From a virus (Duplodnaviria; Heunggongvirae; Uroviricota; Caudoviricetes): a stretch of 9,710 nucleotides of DNA. This document shows, piece by piece, positions 1 through 9,710 of the stretch. The stretch lies in the IMG/VR virus record IMGVR_UViG_2531839663_000002. One strand, given 5' to 3'. Made by a program: the position numbers and the translations under genes. Every line of letters begins with the position of its first letter. The stretch's first letter is position 1. The notes beneath the pieces were generated by a model. The model saw only the letters and a list, made by a program, of their open reading frames with translations. It made no database searches and had not been told where the DNA came from.

Positions 1-156
1 TTGCATCAAGAACAGCAGTGTCAGCCCTAGGCTCTCGGACTTTGTACCGCTTATCTTGTCTTCAAAAATCAGCTCGCCTCCTGCACAGTTCAACGCATTA
101 CGTTGTAGATCGATTTTCTGGTCATTTGTTGATACGAAAACATAGCCAATAAGCAT
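1..156 (-). CDS. Serine DNA invertase (Pin/Gin/Hin family), 5' portion only; gene runs off the left window edge; carries the same Arg-to-Phe change as the right copy
   Basis: Minus strand of 1..156 is identical to 2203..2358, so it encodes MLIGYVFVSTNDQKIDLQRNALNCAGGELIFEDKISGTKSE...; start codon at 156..154 preceded by a GAGGGAG Shine-Dalgarno. Not in the ORF track because it is open at the edge. Confidence 0.7.
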   Translation of the reverse strand, partial: MLIGYVFVSTNDQKIDLQRNALNCAGGELIFEDKISGTKSESLGLTLLFLMQ

Positions 157-182
157 GGTAGCTCCCTCTGACAAAAGCAGGA

Positions 183-725
183 ATGATGCCATTTTCTCGT
201 TATTTCTGCATTTTCATAAACGTTGGTTTGGGAGAAGGCTCTGCATTACCGGTTGGGGTGCCTGTTCCGTGGCCTTCAGCCACTCCGCCAACAGGCTGGC
301 TGAAATGCAACGGTGCCGCTTTTTCTGCTGAAGAATACCCGGAACTGGCAAAGGCTTATCCGACAAATAAATTGCCTGATTTACGTGGTGAGTTTATTCG
401 TGGCTGGGATGACGGGCGTGGTATTGATGCTGTACGTGCCTTGCTAAGTCTTCAGAATGGAGGAGTGGAATCACACACCCACCAAGGGCAGCTCTTCAGA
501 GTTAGTGATTATCGTACAAAAGAAATACCAGCATCAGAAGTTATGGGAAGAGGATATATTGCAAGCCTGACGCCGGGTGCTGATAGCCCACTTGATTTTG
601 ATGATTATTCTGTATCTTCTAATCCAAATGGATATTTTGTCGGGAATCAGAGAACAACAGCATATGGGATAAATGAAACCCGTCCACGGAATATTGCATT
701 TAACTATATCGTGAGGGCTGCCTGA
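183..725 (+). CDS. Phage tail-fibre C-terminal (variable, receptor-binding) module; orphan segment with no constant N-terminal part upstream
   Basis: 180-aa ORF with tail-collar-like PVPWPSATPPTGWLKCNGAAFSAEEYPELAKAYP...DLRGEFIRGWDDGRG and terminal NIAFNYIVRAA typical of tail-fibre C-termini. First 18 codons lie in the repeat; in-frame stop at 159..161, so no upstream fusion is possible. Stop overlaps next start (TGATG at 723..727). Confidence 0.7.
   Translation: MMPFSRYFCIFINVGLGEGSALPVGVPVPWPSATPPTGWLKCNGAAFSAEEYPELAKAYPTNKLPDLRGEFIRGWDDGRGIDAVRALLSLQNGGVESHTHQGQLFRVSDYRTKEIPASEVMGRGYIASLTPGADSPLDFDDYSVSSNPNGYFVGNQRTTAYGINETRPRNIAFNYIVRAA
211..236. other. Putative invertase crossover site (hix/gix/pix-like), left copy
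   Basis: Reverse complement reads TTCTCCCAAACCAACGTTTATGAAAA, resembling remembered 26-bp sites hixL TTCTTGAAAACCAAGGTTTTTGATAA and gix TTCCTGTAAACCGAGGTTTTGGATAA (shared TTC..AAACC.A.GTTT..GA.AA). Sits at the inner end of the long repeat. Confidence 0.6.
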
Positions 726-1327
726 TGAATAAAGCCGTATTAAATAACGAACTCATTGCCATAAAAGCGGGAGACATTACCATTTATAATTATGATGGTG
801 AAACGCGGGAATATATTTCCACATCAACTGAATATCTTGCGGTTGGCGTCGGTATCCCGGCATGTTCTTGTTTAGATGCACCAGTTACACATAAAGCTGG
901 TTATGCAATCTGCCGTTCTGCAGATTTTAACTCATGGGAATATGTGCCAGACCATCGCGGTGAAATCATCTATAGCACCGAAACAGGAGAATCGAAAGAA
1001 ATCACAGCTCCGGGTGATTACCCTGAAAATACAACCACTATCGCCCCGTTAACGCCATATGATAAATGGGATGGTGAGAAATGGGTGACGGATACTGAGG
1101 CACAGCATAGTGCCGCAGTAGACGCGGCAGAAGCACAGCGCCAGTCACTGATTGATGCAGCAATGGCTTCCATTAGTCTGATTCAGCTGAAATTACAGGC
1201 CGGACGGAAGTTGACGCAGGCAGAAACAACCCGACTTAACGCCGTGCTGGATTACATTGACGCGGTGGCGGCAACAGATACCAGCACCGCGCCGGATGTC
1301 ATCTGGCCTGAACTGCCGGAGGCGTAG
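725..1327 (+). CDS. Tail fibre assembly protein (Tfa/U-like chaperone)
   Basis: 200-aa ORF translationally coupled to the upstream fibre module; C-terminal LDYIDAVAATDTSTAPDVIWPELP matches the conserved Tfa C-terminal motif and is shared with the convergent paralog. Confidence 0.8.
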   Translation: MNKAVLNNELIAIKAGDITIYNYDGETREYISTSTEYLAVGVGIPACSCLDAPVTHKAGYAICRSADFNSWEYVPDHRGEIIYSTETGESKEITAPGDYPENTTTIAPLTPYDKWDGEKWVTDTEAQHSAAVDAAEAQRQSLIDAAMASISLIQLKLQAGRKLTQAETTRLNAVLDYIDAVAATDTSTAPDVIWPELPEA

Positions 1328-1742
1328 GCCATTCAATATCTGGCGCACTGGAGGAATCAACCAGTTCCAGTGCGTCCAGATAATCCAGCCACAAATTATA
1401 TTGCGCCAGTTCATCATCTTTCAGACGACCAATAGCGGCTTTACCGGGCCATTGCTTACTGTTCATGTATTCGTTGGCCTGGTTAATTAGTAGCTGTCTT
1501 TCTGATTCAGTAATTTCAATAAGTTCTTCATGCGTGGGTGGAGGAATATCTGCCCACGCAGGCAGCCCATCATCTCCGGCAATACGGATTTTTCCTTGTG
1601 GCGGTTCAGCCATAAACTCACTGATAATATTTTGATTTACTTCCTTAGCGTCTGATAAATCCCATCCCTCTGATTTATATTTATCAATCATATCCACAGG
1701 GAAAAAAGCATTATGCCTTGCGCTATAAACATATTCGTTCAT
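1299..1742 (-). CDS. Tail fibre assembly protein (Tfa'/U'-like), second allele
   Basis: Minus-strand ORF; probable start is ATG at 1742..1740 (MNEYVYSARH...) with a GGGTGA Shine-Dalgarno about 7 nt upstream (the ORF track begins at an upstream GTG, 1751). C-terminus LWLDYLDALELVDSSSAPDIEWPTPP parallels the other Tfa. 3' ends overlap the + strand tfa by 29 nt. Confidence 0.8.
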   Translation of the reverse strand: MNEYVYSARHNAFFPVDMIDKYKSEGWDLSDAKEVNQNIISEFMAEPPQGKIRIAGDDGLPAWADIPPPTHEELIEITESERQLLINQANEYMNSKQWPGKAAIGRLKDDELAQYNLWLDYLDALELVDSSSAPDIEWPTPPAVQAR

Positions 1743-1762
1743 ATAAATCACCCTGAATAAAA

Positions 1763-2176
1763 TTACTCACCAACAGCCCACCAACTGTAATTCATCGATA
1801 CCGTGTCGCTGGTTGATGACGTCCTGTAAGCAGAATTAAAGCCGGTTAACGTTGGGCCTTCTGCAGTCATCACGAACCCTCGCCCAGCGCCTAAAGGCGC
1901 ACCGCCATCACCAGAATGAGTAAGCATGGCGCAGTCCGCTTTTTTGGGGAAAGGGATGCTGAATGTAATTCTCATTGTTTGCGTCGATAATGTCGGCGTA
2001 ACCGCACCACTACCATATTGCAGGATTTTCCCGTTGGGTAATTTCATCCATCCATCACCACTGGCAAAAGAGGCCATGTCCGGTATCTGATTTTCCCCTG
2101 TCCCTACATCCCGTTTTGCCGCTTCTCCCAAACCAACGTTTATGAAAATGCAGAAATAACGAGAAAATGGCATCAT
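1763..2176 (-). CDS. Phage tail-fibre C-terminal (variable) module, alternative allele
   Basis: 137-aa ORF starting with the same 18 residues (MMPFSRYFCIFINVGLGE) as 183..725 because both begin in the repeat, then diverging; followed 20 nt downstream by its own tfa gene. Confidence 0.7.
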   Translation of the reverse strand: MMPFSRYFCIFINVGLGEAAKRDVGTGENQIPDMASFASGDGWMKLPNGKILQYGSGAVTPTLSTQTMRITFSIPFPKKADCAMLTHSGDGGAPLGAGRGFVMTAEGPTLTGFNSAYRTSSTSDTVSMNYSWWAVGE

Positions 2177-2358
2177 TCCTGCTTTTGTCAGAGGGAGCTA
2201 CCATGCTTATTGGCTATGTTTTCGTATCAACAAATGACCAGAAAATCGATCTACAACGTAATGCGTTGAACTGTGCAGGAGGCGAGCTGATTTTTGAAGA
2301 CAAGATAAGCGGTACAAAGTCCGAGAGCCTAGGGCTGACACTGCTGTTCTTGATGCAA
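2122..2358. repeat. Right copy of the inverted repeat (IR-R)
   Basis: Exact reverse complement of 1..237. Confidence 0.9.
2123..2148. other. Putative invertase crossover site (hix/gix/pix-like), right copy
   Basis: TTCTCCCAAACCAACGTTTATGAAAA on the + strand; exact inverted partner of 211..236. Confidence 0.6.
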
Positions 2359-2394
2359 ATTAAAGGATTTAATAGTGAGTTGTGGCCTTACTAA
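2203..2394 (+). pseudogene. Serine DNA invertase (Pin/Gin/Hin family) remnant: N-terminal ~40 codons recognisable, then divergent and terminated
   Basis: MLIGYVFVSTNDQKIDLQRNALNCAGGELIFEDKISGTKSE closely matches remembered Gin/Pin N-termini (MLIGYVRVSTNDQ..DLQRNAL..IFEDK.SG). The conserved Arg before the catalytic Ser is Phe (TTC). Frame stops at 2392..2394 after about 64 codons, against roughly 190 aa for an intact invertase. GAGGGAG Shine-Dalgarno precedes ATG 2203. Confidence 0.8.
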
Positions 2395-2427: not shown

Positions 2428-4317
2428 TTAATCGTGTTTTGGCCATACTTTCAATGCAATTTCCCCCAACTTTTTACCCCGCTCCAGGATTTCACCCTCA
2501 TCCCATTTATCCTTAAGTATAAGTGGTATGTTCAGTCGTAGATTGGTGTGGACGATGAGAGCATCACGTTTTTTCAGAAATACAGCATTCTGAACAGAAC
2601 GGTTTACGCTAAGGTTAAGCAAAGTTAGATTTCCCAACGTAGCTATCGCTTGTTGCCGTTTCCTTACCAGTAGCTGCTCAGGGGTAAGATCTGTTCCAGA
2701 CAGAACAATTTGGTTCAATACCGTTGCATCTGAATTTGTCACCATATGACCATTTTCGAGAGGCCAACAGGAATACCAACTTTGAGGCATAAGATGATCG
2801 ATATCGAGATTGGAAAGATTTGGAACATCAGGCTTCTCTGTCTTCACTTGGCGACAAAGTTCTCTTTCAAGTTCCGTTAACATTGAGCGCATTTTCGGTG
2901 CGTCGAGCCTGCCAGGATAAAGTGGAGCATTGATGCAAGCATTGAGAAATTCTGAGTCACCAGGCCAACGTGAGGCTTCGCCATTTAAGCTATTGAGGAT
3001 ATTACGTAACTCAACACTGGAAATTTCCGTTTTAGACAAGTGCCGCAATACATTCATAAATACATTGTTGTAATTCTTTGGCGTCAGGCCACATACGGCT
3101 CTTCGTACTACGTAGGAGACAAGATCATTATACATGGCTGCTTTCTCATCATCGGCGATATTAGCTATCGAAATGAACAAAGCAAGCGGATAAAGTGTCG
3201 TCACATCATAGGCTGCGATGCGATGTCCAAAGTGTGAGATGGGGGTTGTGCCAAAACCACCAACTAATTCTTTATATTGTGATGCATATTGTTTGAGGCG
3301 CTTTACTTGCAGATCAGCTCGTTGTGAAGGCAAGTCCTTACTTACATAATCACGATACTCATTGTAAAGACGAGACAGATCAATTTCACGTTGCCTTTCT
3401 GATTGCAATGTCGCATGCACTAGCCACTCCATGCGTGGTTTATTAATACGTCCACGGCGTTGCCTTTCCGACCAGTATGTATCTTCAAAGCTCTTCCACT
3501 CATTTTCATATAATTCAATAGCATTAATATTTTCATGCTCAGCGCACATAAAGATGTAGTTGCGAATAAGATCCGTGGCATGAAGTTCCGCCCCTCGGCC
3601 ATTTAATGTTTCAAAAATTATTTGGGCATCATCTTCAGCTTCGAGAAATATGCTTACCAGTTTCAGATCCGTCAAGACAGCCTCAATTAGTGCTACAGCA
3701 TTTTCATGTGGTGAGTACTGTTCTATTTTAATCCATTTTATAAAGGCTTCAGTAAAAAACCATAATGCCTCTAGTGACGGCGGGTGGTTGAAATGTTTAC
3801 GTAACGTACCATGTTGCGTGAAGCTATCAGAAAATACATCACGGAGATCGTCAATGTTTTCAACATTAAAACTTTGAATAAAATGAGTTTGGTCTCGAAA
3901 AGTTGGCCACAGTTTGAAGCATTCTACCTTTTTATTTCGCATAGTTGCTTCGTTTGTATTTTTCAAGCAAGTCAATACTAACCCTTCCAAATCAGAAAGG
4001 CCTGTAGCACGCAATGATAATCGAATGGATGCCAGAATATATTGAAGAGTGGTTAAACGTTGCTGGCCGTCAATAATATGTATGGTATCTACACCTAACA
4101 AGCTGTTTTTGAGTTGAGGTTCCAGCACCACCGCGCCAAGGAAATGGGGAGTTGGTTTTGTTCCCAAAAGTCGGCTATGTGCTTTTTCGAAGATATCCTC
4201 CAGCAAAGCTGACCATTGGTTTTGTTGCGTCCATACGTAGGCACGTTGATAGAATGGAACACGATATTGTCGTTGATTTTGGAAAAGTTGCTGGATGGTT
4301 AGCGTTTCGGATTTCAT
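2428..4317 (-). CDS. GmrSD-family type IV (modification-dependent) restriction endonuclease, DUF262 + DUF1524 architecture
   Basis: 629-aa ORF. N-terminal region has the DUF262 hallmark DGQQR (aa 83-87, ...IHIIDGQQRLTTL) with upstream YRVPFYQRAYVW; C-terminal region has an HNH/His-Me-like DIDHLMPQSW ... NLTLLNLSVNRSVQN pattern typical of DUF1524. Confidence 0.8.
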   Translation of the reverse strand: MKSETLTIQQLFQNQRQYRVPFYQRAYVWTQQNQWSALLEDIFEKAHSRLLGTKPTPHFLGAVVLEPQLKNSLLGVDTIHIIDGQQRLTTLQYILASIRLSLRATGLSDLEGLVLTCLKNTNEATMRNKKVECFKLWPTFRDQTHFIQSFNVENIDDLRDVFSDSFTQHGTLRKHFNHPPSLEALWFFTEAFIKWIKIEQYSPHENAVALIEAVLTDLKLVSIFLEAEDDAQIIFETLNGRGAELHATDLIRNYIFMCAEHENINAIELYENEWKSFEDTYWSERQRRGRINKPRMEWLVHATLQSERQREIDLSRLYNEYRDYVSKDLPSQRADLQVKRLKQYASQYKELVGGFGTTPISHFGHRIAAYDVTTLYPLALFISIANIADDEKAAMYNDLVSYVVRRAVCGLTPKNYNNVFMNVLRHLSKTEISSVELRNILNSLNGEASRWPGDSEFLNACINAPLYPGRLDAPKMRSMLTELERELCRQVKTEKPDVPNLSNLDIDHLMPQSWYSCWPLENGHMVTNSDATVLNQIVLSGTDLTPEQLLVRKRQQAIATLGNLTLLNLSVNRSVQNAVFLKKRDALIVHTNLRLNIPLILKDKWDEGEILERGKKLGEIALKVWPKHD

Positions 4318-4874: not shown

Positions 4875-5336
4875 ATGATTAACTTTACTGAAATTGATAG
4901 TGACGGTGAAGCCTGGGAGTCATTTGCCCGTGATTTTCTTGAAGAACTTGGCTTTTATATTGAATCCGCGCCAGATAGAGGTGCAGATGGAGGTAAAGAT
5001 CTTTTAATCACAGAGCAATTGCAAGGTCAGTTAAATAAATATAAATTTCGTTGGCTTGTTAGCTGTAAACATTATGCAACAAGTAAAAAATCAGTTTCAG
5101 AAAAGGATGAGATTAATATACAAGAACGTATTGATGGATTCAATGCCGACGGATTTATTGGATTTTACTCAACACTGCCAAGTAGTGGTTTAAATTCAAG
5201 AATGACGCAATTAAAAGAGAATGGAAAAATAAAGGACTTTCGATTCTTTGATGGTAAATTAATTGAAAATCACTTAGTCAGAATTGGTTACTCAAAACTA
5301 CTCCTTAGATACTTTCCTGAGAGCTATAAAAAATAA
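4875..5336 (+). CDS. Small stand-alone Mrr-cat-like (PD-(D/E)xK fold) restriction-endonuclease domain protein
   Basis: 153-aa ORF with GGGAG Shine-Dalgarno about 8 nt before the ATG. Motifs GADGGKDLL (4980..5006) and FRWLVSCKHY resemble the Mrr catalytic core (GDGGIDL ... QCKRY). No N-terminal DNA-binding domain. Confidence 0.65.
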   Translation: MINFTEIDSDGEAWESFARDFLEELGFYIESAPDRGADGGKDLLITEQLQGQLNKYKFRWLVSCKHYATSKKSVSEKDEINIQERIDGFNADGFIGFYSTLPSSGLNSRMTQLKENGKIKDFRFFDGKLIENHLVRIGYSKLLLRYFPESYKK

Positions 5337-5347
5337 AACCCAAGCAT

Positions 5348-5785
5348 TTGATTTTTGATAAGTACTTACCTATAAAATGTGATCGTTGTGGAAAGGACTT
5401 AATAGAAAACCATCATGAAGAAAATTATGATGGCATTGTGTGCAATGCAGAGATCATACACGATGACAAACCAAATGAGGTGATAGCGGTTTATTATGCG
5501 TGTAAAGGTGATTGTGATAAGCATTTTGAGGATTATTTTTGGAATGAATATAAAGCGATTACGAGATGGCAGGATATAAGTGATCTAGCCATCCCATTAT
5601 TCTATCTCAAATGGATTATGGGGACATTTAATGAACTTGAGTATGGAAGGAAAACATATACCAAAGAAGCCTTCAATAAAACAAAGGAGATAACATTAGC
5701 GCTATCTCAAATTGTTATGAGAGAAATGACAGAAAAAGAAAGAGAAAGAGTGATGGCTTTGAATTCACTACCTGATTACATATAA
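5348..5785 (+). CDS. Cys-rich hypothetical protein (possible C4 zinc ribbon), likely co-transcribed with the upstream Mrr-cat gene
   Basis: 145-aa ORF starting 12 nt after the upstream stop, same strand. Only a TTG start is in frame and no clear Shine-Dalgarno is seen. CxxC (CDRC) plus CxxxC (CKGDC) could form a zinc ribbon; no recognisable family. Confidence 0.5.
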   Translation: MIFDKYLPIKCDRCGKDLIENHHEENYDGIVCNAEIIHDDKPNEVIAVYYACKGDCDKHFEDYFWNEYKAITRWQDISDLAIPLFYLKWIMGTFNELEYGRKTYTKEAFNKTKEITLALSQIVMREMTEKERERVMALNSLPDYI

Positions 5786-5958
5786 ATTATATTTACTAAC
5801 ATTTGAACTAGCGCATCTTTGGTGCAGAGACACCACCATCTTGGGGACACTGTGAGGCCACTGGCTTCCCAACTTATCGTTATACAGGATAATAAGGTGC
5901 TCCAGGGTAGCTATGAACTTGATGTTACGTCTGCGATTTGCTCATAAGGGACAACCAT

Positions 5959-5991
5959 ACTCAAATCTCCCACATTGCAGGAGATTTGAGT
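5959..5991 (+). promoter_or_regulatory. Hairpin sequestering the Shine-Dalgarno of the tyrosine recombinase gene
   Basis: Perfect 12-bp inverted repeat ACTCAAATCTCC (5959..5970) / GGAGATTTGAGT (5980..5991) with 9-nt loop; the right arm contains GGAG and ends one base before ATG 5992. Confidence 0.5.
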
Positions 5992-6594
5992 ATGAACACG
6001 TCACCGTGGAACAAAGACCGTATCATCGGCCAAAAAAGACCACTTCAGATATCTCATATCTGGGGGATCCGAATCCGGCTTGAACTGGAAGGTAAAACGC
6101 GCGATTTAGCTCAGTTCGATATGGCCCTGGACAGTAAGCTACGAGGCTGTGATCTGGTCAAACTCAAAGTATCTGATGTTGCATATGGTAGCTCTGCTTC
6201 AAGCAGAGCTACGGTGCTGCAACAGAAAACCGGTAGCCCTGTGCAGTTTGAGATAACCAAAGGGACAAGAGAAGCTGTTGCTGCATTGATAATGCTTGGC
6301 AATTTGCATAGTAAAGACTTCTTGTTTCGGTTTCTGGTCGGAACTAATTAGCTCATATCTACCCGGCAATACAACCGAATTTTTCATGGGTGGGTAGAAA
6401 AGCTTGGTCTCGAAGATTCGCTTTACAGCACTCATTCCATGAGAAGAACAAAACCTTACCTGATCTACAAGAAAACCAAGAATCTTCGGGTGATCCAACT
6501 TCTGTTGGGCCATAAGAAACTGGAAAGCACAGTCCGTTATCTGGGTATTGAAGTAGATGATGTGTTAGAGATCTCTGAATCGATTGAAGTCTAA
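5992..6594 (+). pseudogene. Compact (~200 aa) tyrosine recombinase/integrase (catalytic domain only) interrupted by an in-frame TAG at 6349..6351
   Basis: One frame runs 5992..6594 with a single TAG at 6349..6351. Before it: LRGCDLVKLKVSDV...QQKTGSPVQFEITKGTREAV (box I Arg). After it: HSMRRTKPYLIYKKTKNLRVIQLLLGHKKLESTVRYLGIEVDD (H-x-x-R, His, RY Tyr). The downstream part is missing from the ORF track only for lack of a start codon. Confidence 0.8.
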
Positions 6595-6717: not shown

Positions 6718-7599
6718 GTGGGTGAGATGGAACTAGATGAAACACTTGAAGTTATCAAAAATAATTTTAGTAATAATCAGAAGAAACTATTTAAAAGGAT
6801 TGAGCCAGCCACTAACCGTCAAGTAGCTATCGGTCTTATTAGTTTACAAGGAGTGGAAAAAACATCTCAGGCTGAGATAGAGGTAATTGCCGGCCTCATA
6901 TCTCAGTTTAGTCCATTGGAAATCGATAGTTTTCAAAATTCACCACGACGAATAACTCTGAAAGGTCAATTCCCAAACGGACATATTGTTTATATCGAGC
7001 CTCAGTATAAGGTTGGCAATATAAACCCAAAAGCCCAGCCTTGGGCAATAGACCTTGTCCTTAGACTAAATAGATGGATTGGTCAAGATTTGGTTGAGAT
7101 TGCTGCTATTGGCATCGAGTATGATGGCCACATAGCTCATTATGTGGAAAGTAAAATTAAGTCTACTTACAAGCGTGATGCAGTAATAACTAGTAACGAA
7201 GGATTTCAATCGATTAGGATCTCACCAGAACAATGGAAATCGTCTAAAGAGGATCTTAAGAAGGCAATTAAAAAGTATTTTGAACATCACATAAAAAAAA
7301 TTGAAAAAGTTCAACTAAGCACAATAAACGCCCAAAATTTCAACAATTTTATTTATGAAAATGAAAATGAAGTGATATCCACTGTAACTTGCCCTTTATG
7401 TAATGGAAAAGGCAGTTTAGCGGGAGAAGATTGTCCGATCTGTAATGGAATGGGATCCGTAAAAAGATATATTGCTGCAAAGGTGAATCTTTCTAATTAT
7501 GAAAAATTCACTTGTCCTGACTGCAGGAATATAAAATTAGATTGCAGAACCTGCAATGGTGAAGGATCAATTAGCAGAGAAAAAGCATTAGAAATGTAA
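6718..7599 (+). CDS. Fusion protein: DUF559/Vsr-like PD-(D/E)xK nuclease domain plus C-terminal DnaJ-type CxxCxGxG zinc finger
   Basis: 293-aa ORF (GTG 6718 or ATG 6727 start, ambiguous). Central AIDLVL...AIGIEYDGHIAHY...KRDAVITSNEGFQSIRIS matches the DUF559 pattern (IExDGxxH ... RDxx ... GxxxxR). C-terminus has CPLCNGKG, CPICNGMG, CPDCRN, CRTCNGEG (about 7390..7566), as in the DnaJ cysteine-rich domain. Confidence 0.7.
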   Translation: MGEMELDETLEVIKNNFSNNQKKLFKRIEPATNRQVAIGLISLQGVEKTSQAEIEVIAGLISQFSPLEIDSFQNSPRRITLKGQFPNGHIVYIEPQYKVGNINPKAQPWAIDLVLRLNRWIGQDLVEIAAIGIEYDGHIAHYVESKIKSTYKRDAVITSNEGFQSIRISPEQWKSSKEDLKKAIKKYFEHHIKKIEKVQLSTINAQNFNNFIYENENEVISTVTCPLCNGKGSLAGEDCPICNGMGSVKRYIAAKVNLSNYEKFTCPDCRNIKLDCRTCNGEGSISREKALEM

Positions 7600-7904: not shown

Positions 7905-7950
7905 ATTCGTAATGCGAAGGTCGTAGGTTCGACTCCTATTATCGGCACCA
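7905..7950 (+). other. 3' fragment (~46 nt) of tRNA-Thr(CGU), thrW-like; attachment-site remnant marking the end of an integrated element
   Basis: ATTCGTAATGCGAAGGTCGTAGGTTCGACTCCTATTATCGGCACCA matches the 3' part of E. coli thrW as remembered (anticodon-loop CGT, T-arm GGTTCGACTCC, acceptor end with CCA). Sequence upstream of 7905 does not match the tRNA 5' half, so this is not an intact gene. Confidence 0.75.
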
Positions 7951-8403
7951 TCTTTTATAATAAAATCATCAAGTTATTATTGCATTGTTTTGCTTTGTTC
8001 AACACTAATGTGCAATTCTGCGCGTTGTAGATGTGGCAAAATTGTGGCAAGTACAGTGAGATTGTTTGTGGCTCAATGCAAGGGTATGCTAACGGCACGT
8101 GTTACCTTGTAGCTCCCGTCGATCTTGTCTTTTGAGCAATATTACTACTTTGATGGTTTCTGGTTACGGATGTTGTCAGTCCAGTTCGCAGCCAGCACGG
8201 TTTGACCTAAAGGATGTTATTACAATAACCTACGCAGGCATTCAAACACGTTTAGTCTGCCATTTAGGTTATTGCATTCACTTGACGACCCATTTGCATT
8301 TCACTTAGTCATATCTAACAAAAAAATGCATCCGATACCCTACTATTGACAGGCAGCTTTGAGCGATCTGCTGACATTACCAGCATAGTGGCGTATTAAT
8401 CAT

Positions 8404-8637
8404 CTAGGAGCAGGTCACAATCTCAGCCATCAAGCTCTGGACTAACCCAACTGCGAAACGCTGCAGACTAACAAGACCATCTTCGTCGTCCTCGCCGTAG
8501 AAACGTGTGAAGGCAACCGATCGCACCTTCTCATAGTCTTCACCATGTTCATCGCCTCCAAAACGCTTGGCGAGCGCCGCCAGCACGTACTTCAAAGACT
8601 CTTGGTCCTCCTCTGAACGAATAGAGCTATGACTTCG
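8404..8637 (-). pseudogene. Orphan 3' gene fragment of unknown function
   Basis: Minus-strand frame open from a stop at 8638..8640 to the stop at 8404, with no ATG or Shine-Dalgarno at its 5' end (the ORF track starts at a TTG). Acidic sequence ...GGDEHGEDYEKVRSVAFTRFYGEDDEDG...; no family recognised. Could be spurious. Confidence 0.25.
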
Positions 8638-8804
8638 CTAGAGACAAAGTCGCTTACTTAGCTTCCCTGTTTCGATGTTGCAACTCACATATTTTTAACT
8701 TTCAGAATGTGTTACCCAATAGTTCGTGCTAATGCTACTATTTGTATTCAATCGGATTAATGATGTTGTTACGCGAGTCCATTGAACTAAACATAAGGGA
8801 GTAT

Positions 8805-9330
8805 ATGGGGTTAGCTGAAACATTAGTTAGTATTCCGCAGTCTGAAAGAGGCGGTGAGATTGCTCAACGTGGGTTTGACTATCAAACTTGCTGGGCTTTA
8901 TCTCAAATGCTGGAATATGAACTAGATGAAAAGAACTATGTGTTTATCTTCGAATATCATGATGATGTTCTTATTCTTGATGACGAAGTTTCTCCAACAC
9001 AACTCACATTTGCTCAAGTAAAAACAAGAGAGAAACACTGGACTGCATCCACTCTTAGTAATAGCACCAAGAAGAACCCAATATCTATCATCGGTAAGTT
9101 ATTTATTCATCAAAAGAATTTCGCCGAATATTCACCCAAGCTCCTTTTTGTTACTAATGCTTCTTTCAATCTATGTGAGGAAAACGGTGGTAAGTCTTGT
9201 TTTGGTGCAAATGAAGTCAAAGTGGAGTATCAGACGAGCTTTAAGAAAGCAATCAAAGATCAAGTAAAGCTTGATGACTCCAGTATCGATCTTTCTGTTA
9301 TGCGTTTCGTTCAATCCTCATTAAGCCTAG
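8805..9330 (+). pseudogene. PD-(D/E)xK-like nuclease-domain gene (resembles DUF4297-type domains of defence proteins), 3'-truncated by IS5
   Basis: ATG at 8805 with AAGGGA Shine-Dalgarno at 8795..8800. Motifs GFDYQTCWAL, EYHDDVLILDD and FAQVKT fit a D...(E/Q)xK core. The frame continues into the IS5 terminus from 9331; the last residues GKVRTSP are IS-encoded, so the native C-terminus is missing. Confidence 0.6.

Positions 9331-9710
<380 letters not shown>

Follow-up and report, generated by a model that had tools for sequence, protein, structure and literature searches.

The stretch of DNA analysed here (the window, 9,710 bp) is identical to the entire contig AFAD02000006.1 of assembly GCA_000194555.2 and carries pin', the decayed remnant of a PinE-type serine DNA invertase gene, next to a tail-fibre segment. 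With a probability of roughly 0.78, we consider this segment to be still flipped in trans and the mirrored copy of the remnant at the left end of the contig to be a product of this flipping. The stub would once have been a PinE-type invertase serving the adjacent invertible tail-fibre segment of an e14/Mu-like prophage. The loss of the remainder of the gene would have spared two 26-bp crossover sites and a 5' segment homologous to a mapped Fis enhancer, so that invertases encoded elsewhere could still flip the segment.

The window consists of the tail end of an E. coli prophage followed by a defence island (Table 1). Its left end falls within an inverted repeat and the right one within IS5, as is typical of breaks in draft assemblies. 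A perfect inverted repeat of 237 nt (1–237 and 2122–2358) brackets a block of 1.9 kb. Rightwards of this block, the 63-codon open reading frame is followed by a DUF262/GmrSD gene, an Mrr-like gene, a small integrase gene, a 293-aa zinc-finger/REase-like gene, a fragment of a Cap4 nuclease gene and the start of IS5.

Table 1. Features of the window and the evidence on which they were assigned (strand:., unstranded).
Feature	Position	Strand	Basis or remark
Mirror of 2142–2358: pin' 5' region, codons 1–52 at 1–156	1..217	-	100% inverted repeat
Left 26-bp crossover site, as assembled	211..236	.	outer half pin' side, inner half Sv side; central TT 223–224
Invertible P-type segment	238..2121	.	Pfam; flipped as one block between near-identical genomes
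Sv collar-type fibre tip	to 725	+	Pfam Collar
Tail fibre assembly gene	725–1327	+	Pfam Caudo_TAP
Tail fibre assembly gene	1299–1751	-	Pfam Caudo_TAP
S'v gp53-like fibre tip	1763–2121	-	Pfam Gp53-like_C
Right 26-bp crossover site (pix)	2123..2148	.	TTCTCCCAAACC-AA-CGTTTATGAAAA; central dinucleotide 2135–2136; gix/cix pattern
pin', 63-codon remnant of a PinE-type serine DNA invertase	2203..2394	+	Pfam Resolvase, pinE comparison, PGAP
TTC (Phe7) replacing catalytic Arg (CGC/CGT)	2221..2223	+	comparison with pinE alleles
Stretch homologous to the P1 cin Fis-dependent recombinational enhancer	2221..2292	.	cin nt 19–90; retained whole
Breakpoint interval, pinE homology to DUF262 cassette	2338..2353	+	approximately codon 46–50; intact alleles align to 2338
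DUF262/GmrSD-type restriction gene	2428..4317	-	Pfam GmrSD_N and GmrSD_C
Mrr-like restriction endonuclease gene	4875–5785		split in the window
Small tyrosine integrase gene	5938–6594		interrupted at 6349
Gene of the 293-aa protein	6718–7599		weak sub-threshold matches
Cap4-type dsDNA endonuclease domain	8742–9353		profile positions 1–162 of 200
IS5-like transposase start	9363–9710		adjoins the Cap4-type domain

The pin' remnant and its truncation

The open frame of pin' begins with an ATG at 2203, and its first nine codons (ATG CTT ATT GGC TAT GTT TTC GTA TCA) encode MLIGYVFVS. An earlier note on this DNA had pointed out that this sequence stands where members of the family have an arginine. 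This was confirmed, as intact PinE, Mu Gin and P1 Cin all read MLIGYVRVS. Together with base 2220, the TTC codon represents a change of three nucleotides, from GTA CGC to GTT TTC. Within the YxRVS motif Ser9 is thus kept and the catalytic Arg7 is replaced by phenylalanine. The replaced arginine aligns with R8 of the Tn3/γδ resolvase, and R8 of Tn3 resolvase belongs to a set of six residues at which mutation strongly impairs both cleavage and recombination (PMC2794168).

Descent of the stub from the invertase family was borne out by its match to Gin structures (E = 7e-15, residues 1–61 aligned) and by ungapped, in-frame DNA comparison with three intact pinE alleles, in which 113 of 120 positions were identical over 2203–2322. 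Identity fell to approximately 22/32 over 2323–2354 and then to chance level. By BLAST, homology to any intact pinE allele ends at 2338, and weak in-frame similarity to pinE continues to approximately 2352. The Pfam Resolvase match in the stub is restricted to residues 3–45, corresponding to profile positions 2–52 of 145. The remaining bases (2353–2394) are an unrelated read-through tail, which contributes the last 13–17 residues of the peptide and ends in a TAA stop codon at 2392–2394, after 63 codons. This agrees with the earlier description of a copy that diverges after about 40 codons and stops near codon 64, the homology ending at about codon 46–50.

The stub is without about 134 of the 184 codons of the intact gene, which encode the remainder of the catalytic domain as well as the E-helix and the helix-turn-helix domain. 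Hence, neither a complete catalytic domain of approximately 140 aa with the second arginine cluster and the E-helix nor an HTH_7 domain is present; the latter occurs together with the Resolvase domain in an intact neighbour (L020, 8139–8693). Because most of the codons and the catalytic arginine are missing, the resident invertase is predicted to be non-functional and the stub to be non-catalytic, which supports the earlier view that the gene is inactivated. PGAP annotates the locus as 'recombinase family protein, incomplete, missing C-terminus'. The stub is a widespread, already annotated invertase pseudogene, and the finding as such is real but ordinary and of low novelty.

The junction between pin' and the DUF262 gene was found in 289 of 5,426 complete E. 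coli genomes. The exact 63-aa peptide of the window occurs on 116 public contigs and a 75-aa form on 65. Among proteins comprising the 63-aa frame plus read-through tail, the Cys7 form (P0123) occurs on at least 1,000 contigs, and the Phe7 form comprises P0124, on 202 contigs, beside the exact peptide of the window. As the exact peptide is present on 116 public contigs and the TTC allele in many complete genomes, a sequencing error at this codon, a point on which the earlier note had been cautious, was ruled out. The arginine was replaced or the YxRVS motif disrupted in 12 of 120 database matches listed, all of them fragments of 105 aa or less. A full-length invertase with Phe7 was sought but not found, as none of these 120 matches is full-length, which is a weak result since the word-indexed search returned only short proteins.

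The truncation junction occurs with Arg7 (strain YF-1, L015), Cys7 and Phe7 alleles. In YF-1, the junction is accompanied by GTA CGC, encoding arginine, and by the ancestral N14/T15 codons, plus a 1-bp deletion resulting in a frameshift. As CGC to TGC to TTC is a path of single steps and the junction is shared by the R, C and F alleles, the truncation is older and R7F followed. Judged from the alleles, the truncation is ancestral and R7F fits a later decay of an already dead gene. The order implied by the earlier note, Arg-to-Phe and then truncation, proved wrong, given that one and the same junction goes with all three alleles. After the truncation, the stub would have gathered its substitutions, namely the change of R7 to C and then F, N14K and T15I, to which the window strain adds C27G. 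These changes relative to pinE, with S36 or N35 found elsewhere, are mostly non-synonymous and are therefore consistent with an unconstrained remnant.

The intact pinE of APEC 102026 has a GIY-YIG gene behind it, after which come the Mrr-like, integrase and 293-aa genes also present in the window. Since either a GIY-YIG or a DUF262 gene may follow pin, the position downstream of pin is a variable cargo site. A single cargo exchange probably cost the invertase gene its 3' two-thirds, with everything beyond approximately codon 46–50 replaced by a cassette of defence genes (DUF262/GmrSD and its neighbours). A stem-loop at 2384–2403 (−13.9 kcal/mol, z = −3.6, no U-tract) lies under the stub tail and 3' of the DUF262 gene. 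Scans of 2050–2500 for canonical terminators and promoters found nothing.

The Mrr-like restriction endonuclease of the island has 303 aa and is intact in L010 and in APEC 102026. In the window its gene is split into ORFs of 153 and 145 aa by the loss of one A from an A7 run (A-run at 5327–5332). As the split allele was also met with on at least 20 public contigs, it is a real variant, possibly prone to slippage. The gene of the 200-aa tyrosine integrase is interrupted by a change of CAG to TAG at 6349, and an intact copy is present in L020. The 293-aa protein encoded beside the integrase gave weak, sub-threshold matches to a DnaJ-type CXXCXGXG zinc finger and to a REase-like domain (MTES_1575), and its gene is conserved at this place in several island variants. 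Similarity to related E. coli loci stops at 7951, and 7952–9710 represents different cargo. The last 47 bp before this point (7905–7951) recur at L011 18612–18658 and resemble an attachment-site repeat. The match to the Cap4-type dsDNA endonuclease ends abruptly next to the start of the IS5-like transposase, and the gene looks like a CBASS-type effector that was cut by the insertion sequence.

Crossover sites and inversion of the tail-fibre segment

The segment is flanked by two inverted 26-bp sites with an AAACC-NN-GGTTT core. The corresponding repeat of the K-12 e14 P segment has been given as CCTTCTCCCAAACCAA (PMC12529663). In related genomes, the outer half of the left site is CTCTCGAAAACC, which stems from the constant part of the tail fibre (L021). 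Between the sites lie two opposed sets, each consisting of a fibre C-terminal part and an assembly chaperone (Collar plus Caudo_TAP and Gp53-like_C plus Caudo_TAP). The constant 5' fibre part is absent from the contig, where the mirrored pin' flank is found instead, and is present in relatives (98.8% identity in L021/L022, 99.95–99.98% in L010). The ORFs at 183–725 and 1763–2176 share the start MMPFSRYFCIFINVGLGE (window 183–237 and 2122–2176). This shared start is due to read-through across the crossover site into the upstream region of pin' and does not represent genuine coding sequence; the actual starts of the fibre genes are in the constant part, which lies on another contig.

Strains TST3 and TBE6, which come from the same survey, both carry the TTC stub and are 100% identical in their flanks over 11,036 and 14,271 bp. 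Between the sites, the two strains differ by an inversion of the 3,167-bp segment, with one mismatch. The exchange took place at the central dinucleotide of the 26-bp site (CTCTCGAAAACC-TT-GGTTT... and, at the opposite end, ...AAACC-AA-CATTTATGAAAA), which is the signature of a Gin/Pin-type enzyme. The same inversion separates CP184819 from CP184822 and OZ041005 from CATKLP01, with segments of 1,586 and 1,924 bp and the TTC codon in all four. Opposite orientations thus occur among near-identical genomes carrying the stub, and both junction types are present in the contig itself. As three TTC-stub pairs are inverted at the sites, inversion has happened repeatedly after the resident gene died. 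With the resident gene dead, the flipping has to be the work of an invertase that acts in trans, and we know of no other route to such an inversion. An ISVsa5 element resides inside the collar-type fibre tip within the segment of both TST3 and TBE6 (L008 12215–13423 and L009 12779–13987); carried along by the inversion, it is a convenient natural marker of recent flipping.

The claim that the cassette is locked in its current orientation was contradicted by these three pairs, in which the segment is inverted exactly at the 26-bp sites. The exception allowed by the earlier note, an intact paralog acting in trans, is favoured by the inversions as far as action in trans is concerned, and the paralog itself is a candidate deduced from them. 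PinQ and PinR, encoded by other cryptic prophages, as well as PinE have been reported to invert the e14 P segment (PMC12529663). On the chromosomes of both TST3 and TBE6 there is a second place that matches the invertase N-terminus, and those of PK8276 and TUM17668 show only one such place. None of the stub genomes yielded a located, demonstrably intact trans invertase or a located PinQ/PinR homologue, and enzymes like those of K-12 are candidates for the role.

The 5' end that remains of pin' includes a putative enhancer. The P1 record AF234172.1 annotates the Cin enhancer at cin nt 19–90, and the homologous stretch lies wholly inside the retained fragment, at 85–157 bp from the centre of the site. 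The Hin enhancer spans 65 bp with a Fis site at each end and is located about 100 bp from hix (PMC3798978). A scan for G-N13-C identified Fis-core-like 15-mers at 2224–2238 and 2273–2287, and the stretch carries several substitutions. No signal of purifying selection was seen on it, all seven substitutions of 2203–2322 being in or beside the stretch. If the stretch is retained on truncation, the switch might remain operable in trans; deletion of the whole ORF, as in the Keio allele, removes the stretch. In K-12, the P segment of the Keio pinE deletion was reported to be locked despite pinQ and pinR (PMC12529663). Keeping the enhancer in the stub and losing it in the Keio allele would reconcile this locking with the natural inversions. 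A considerably more tentative proposal, which we rate as rather doubtful, is that the stub persists as a cis-acting Fis-dependent enhancer of an orphan P-type switch run by PinQ/PinR-like invertases of other prophages. At the edge of the defence island, such a switch may even have been co-opted by the host as a recombinase-activated anti-phage device like StfE2.

It is improbable that the tail-fibre cassette is instead frozen, with a dead invertase and no other enzyme servicing the sites. The three near-identical TTC-stub pairs differ by a precise site-specific inversion, TST3 and TBE6 alone already contradicting a frozen state; moreover, the contig carries both junction types and Logan contigs break exactly at the edge of the site. 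What speaks for a frozen cassette, apart from a stub that cannot be catalytic, is the orientation of most complete genomes with the junction, in which Sv adjoins pin', and the locking reported for K-12 deleted for pinE. The predominance of one orientation suggests that flipping may be rare or conditional, and the Keio result is ambiguous because the deletion also takes out the putative enhancer.

The mirrored left end and the open frame of the remnant

The left arm of the inverted repeat is cut by the start of the contig and contains a GAA at 136–138, the mirrored TTC. The earlier note had described a left copy on the minus strand (1–156) that shares the phenylalanine. This holds for the sequence, which is 100% identical. 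As evidence for an independent second gene the copy did not hold up, since this end of the draft contig repeats the sequence of the right copy, and relatives carry the constant part of the tail fibre in this place rather than a second inactivated invertase.

For complete genomes that have the constant fibre part, the match to the window does not begin before 218. Those of opposite orientation match 1–420 continuously, and the collar-type tip adjoins pin' there. One related locus (L010, 99.95–99.98% identical to the window) is collinear with window 1–2141, and four others (L011, L014, L021 and L022) are collinear with the right-hand junction. L010 and L011 are 99.98% identical to the window and have opposite orientations. 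From the L010-type and L011-type matches, it follows that the contig holds both mutually exclusive junctions of one single-copy flank. A mis-join by the assembler at a long repeat was ruled out, as the natural repeat between the two sites comprises only 20 nt with one mismatch. Since a repeat of this length is too short to mislead an assembler, pin'-pix-Sv reads must have existed beside S'v-pix-pin' reads. This is supported by independent Logan contigs (k=31): those from SRR064713, with 100% identity to the window, and from SRR10915008 have their first base precisely at 2122, which is the inner edge of the site and the first base common to both orientation states. A Logan contig from SRR28208687 runs unbroken through both sites. 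With moderate confidence, we regard the left arm as chimeric, the sequenced culture then containing the segment in both orientations: reads of either kind together would have joined the one pin' flank to each end of the segment. The structure of the contig thus points to mixed orientation in the AFAD02 culture.

No complete genome that was inspected is organised as the deposited contig reads, namely with two physical copies of pin' (perhaps also of the DUF262 arm) inverted around the segment. All have one pin' and the constant fibre part on the other side, and genomes 99.98% identical to the window show this normal layout. The left arm, in addition, stops after 217 nt at the contig end, and kilobase-scale palindromes are unstable in E. 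coli. Thus, a real mirror, for which an inverted duplication would have to have replaced the constant part of the tail fibre, is quite unlikely, even if an assembler would break a large palindrome near the left end of the contig too and branching of the graph at 2122 would be expected as well.

We see hardly any chance that the 63-aa peptide is a maintained small protein, e.g. a regulator of other invertases, with an adaptive Phe7: start codon and open frame are kept in more than 1,000 contigs and the upstream region is conserved, but the alleles differ by scattered non-synonymous changes (positions 7, 14, 15, 27, 35, 36 and 61), YF-1 has a frameshift within the frame, the fragment is without the E-helix dimer interface and the DNA-binding domain, and the last 13–17 residues are read-through of unrelated DNA.

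Comparison with known systems

A decayed stub next to a segment still flipped in trans, the reading we favour, bears on annotation in two ways. The switch need not be frozen where the resident invertase is dead, and a contig that ends as a palindrome at an invertible segment bears the mark of flipping, not of a gene present twice. It also leads to a testable idea, i.e. that 3' truncation sparing the enhancer leaves the switch operable and deletion of the whole gene locks it.

The closest counterpart is the P segment of e14 with PinE in E. coli K-12, which shares with the window the order of tip, assembly gene, opposed assembly gene, opposed tip, 26-bp site and pin. The first 120 nt of the stub are about 94% identical to pinE alleles. 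Unlike in e14, pin of the window is cut at codon 46–50, encodes Phe7 and is followed by a DUF262/GmrSD gene; the neighbour of pinE in K-12 is presumably mcrA. In the window, the inner repeat reads TTGGTTTGGGAGAAGG, exactly as published for e14 (PMC12529663).

Flipping of a cryptic-prophage tail-fibre segment by invertases encoded elsewhere has a precedent in the action of PinQ and PinR on the e14 P segment (Kirigo et al., NAR 2025, PMC12529663), and trans inversion of this kind is the mechanism needed to explain TST3 and TBE6. In contrast to K-12, where the resident PinE is intact, the resident gene of the window is predicted to be dead with its 5' end kept. The genomes described here would add natural examples of trans-serviced tail-fibre switches to the published PinQ/e14 case.

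The G segment of Mu with Gin and the C segment of P1 with Cin have 26-bp sites of the same AAACC-NN-GGTTT architecture, and the N-terminal 40 residues of their invertases are nearly identical to those of the stub. As in P1 Cin, an enhancer-homologous stretch is located within the 5' coding region. However, while Gin and Cin are complete and act on cis-linked segments, the window keeps only the enhancer-homologous DNA and the sites.
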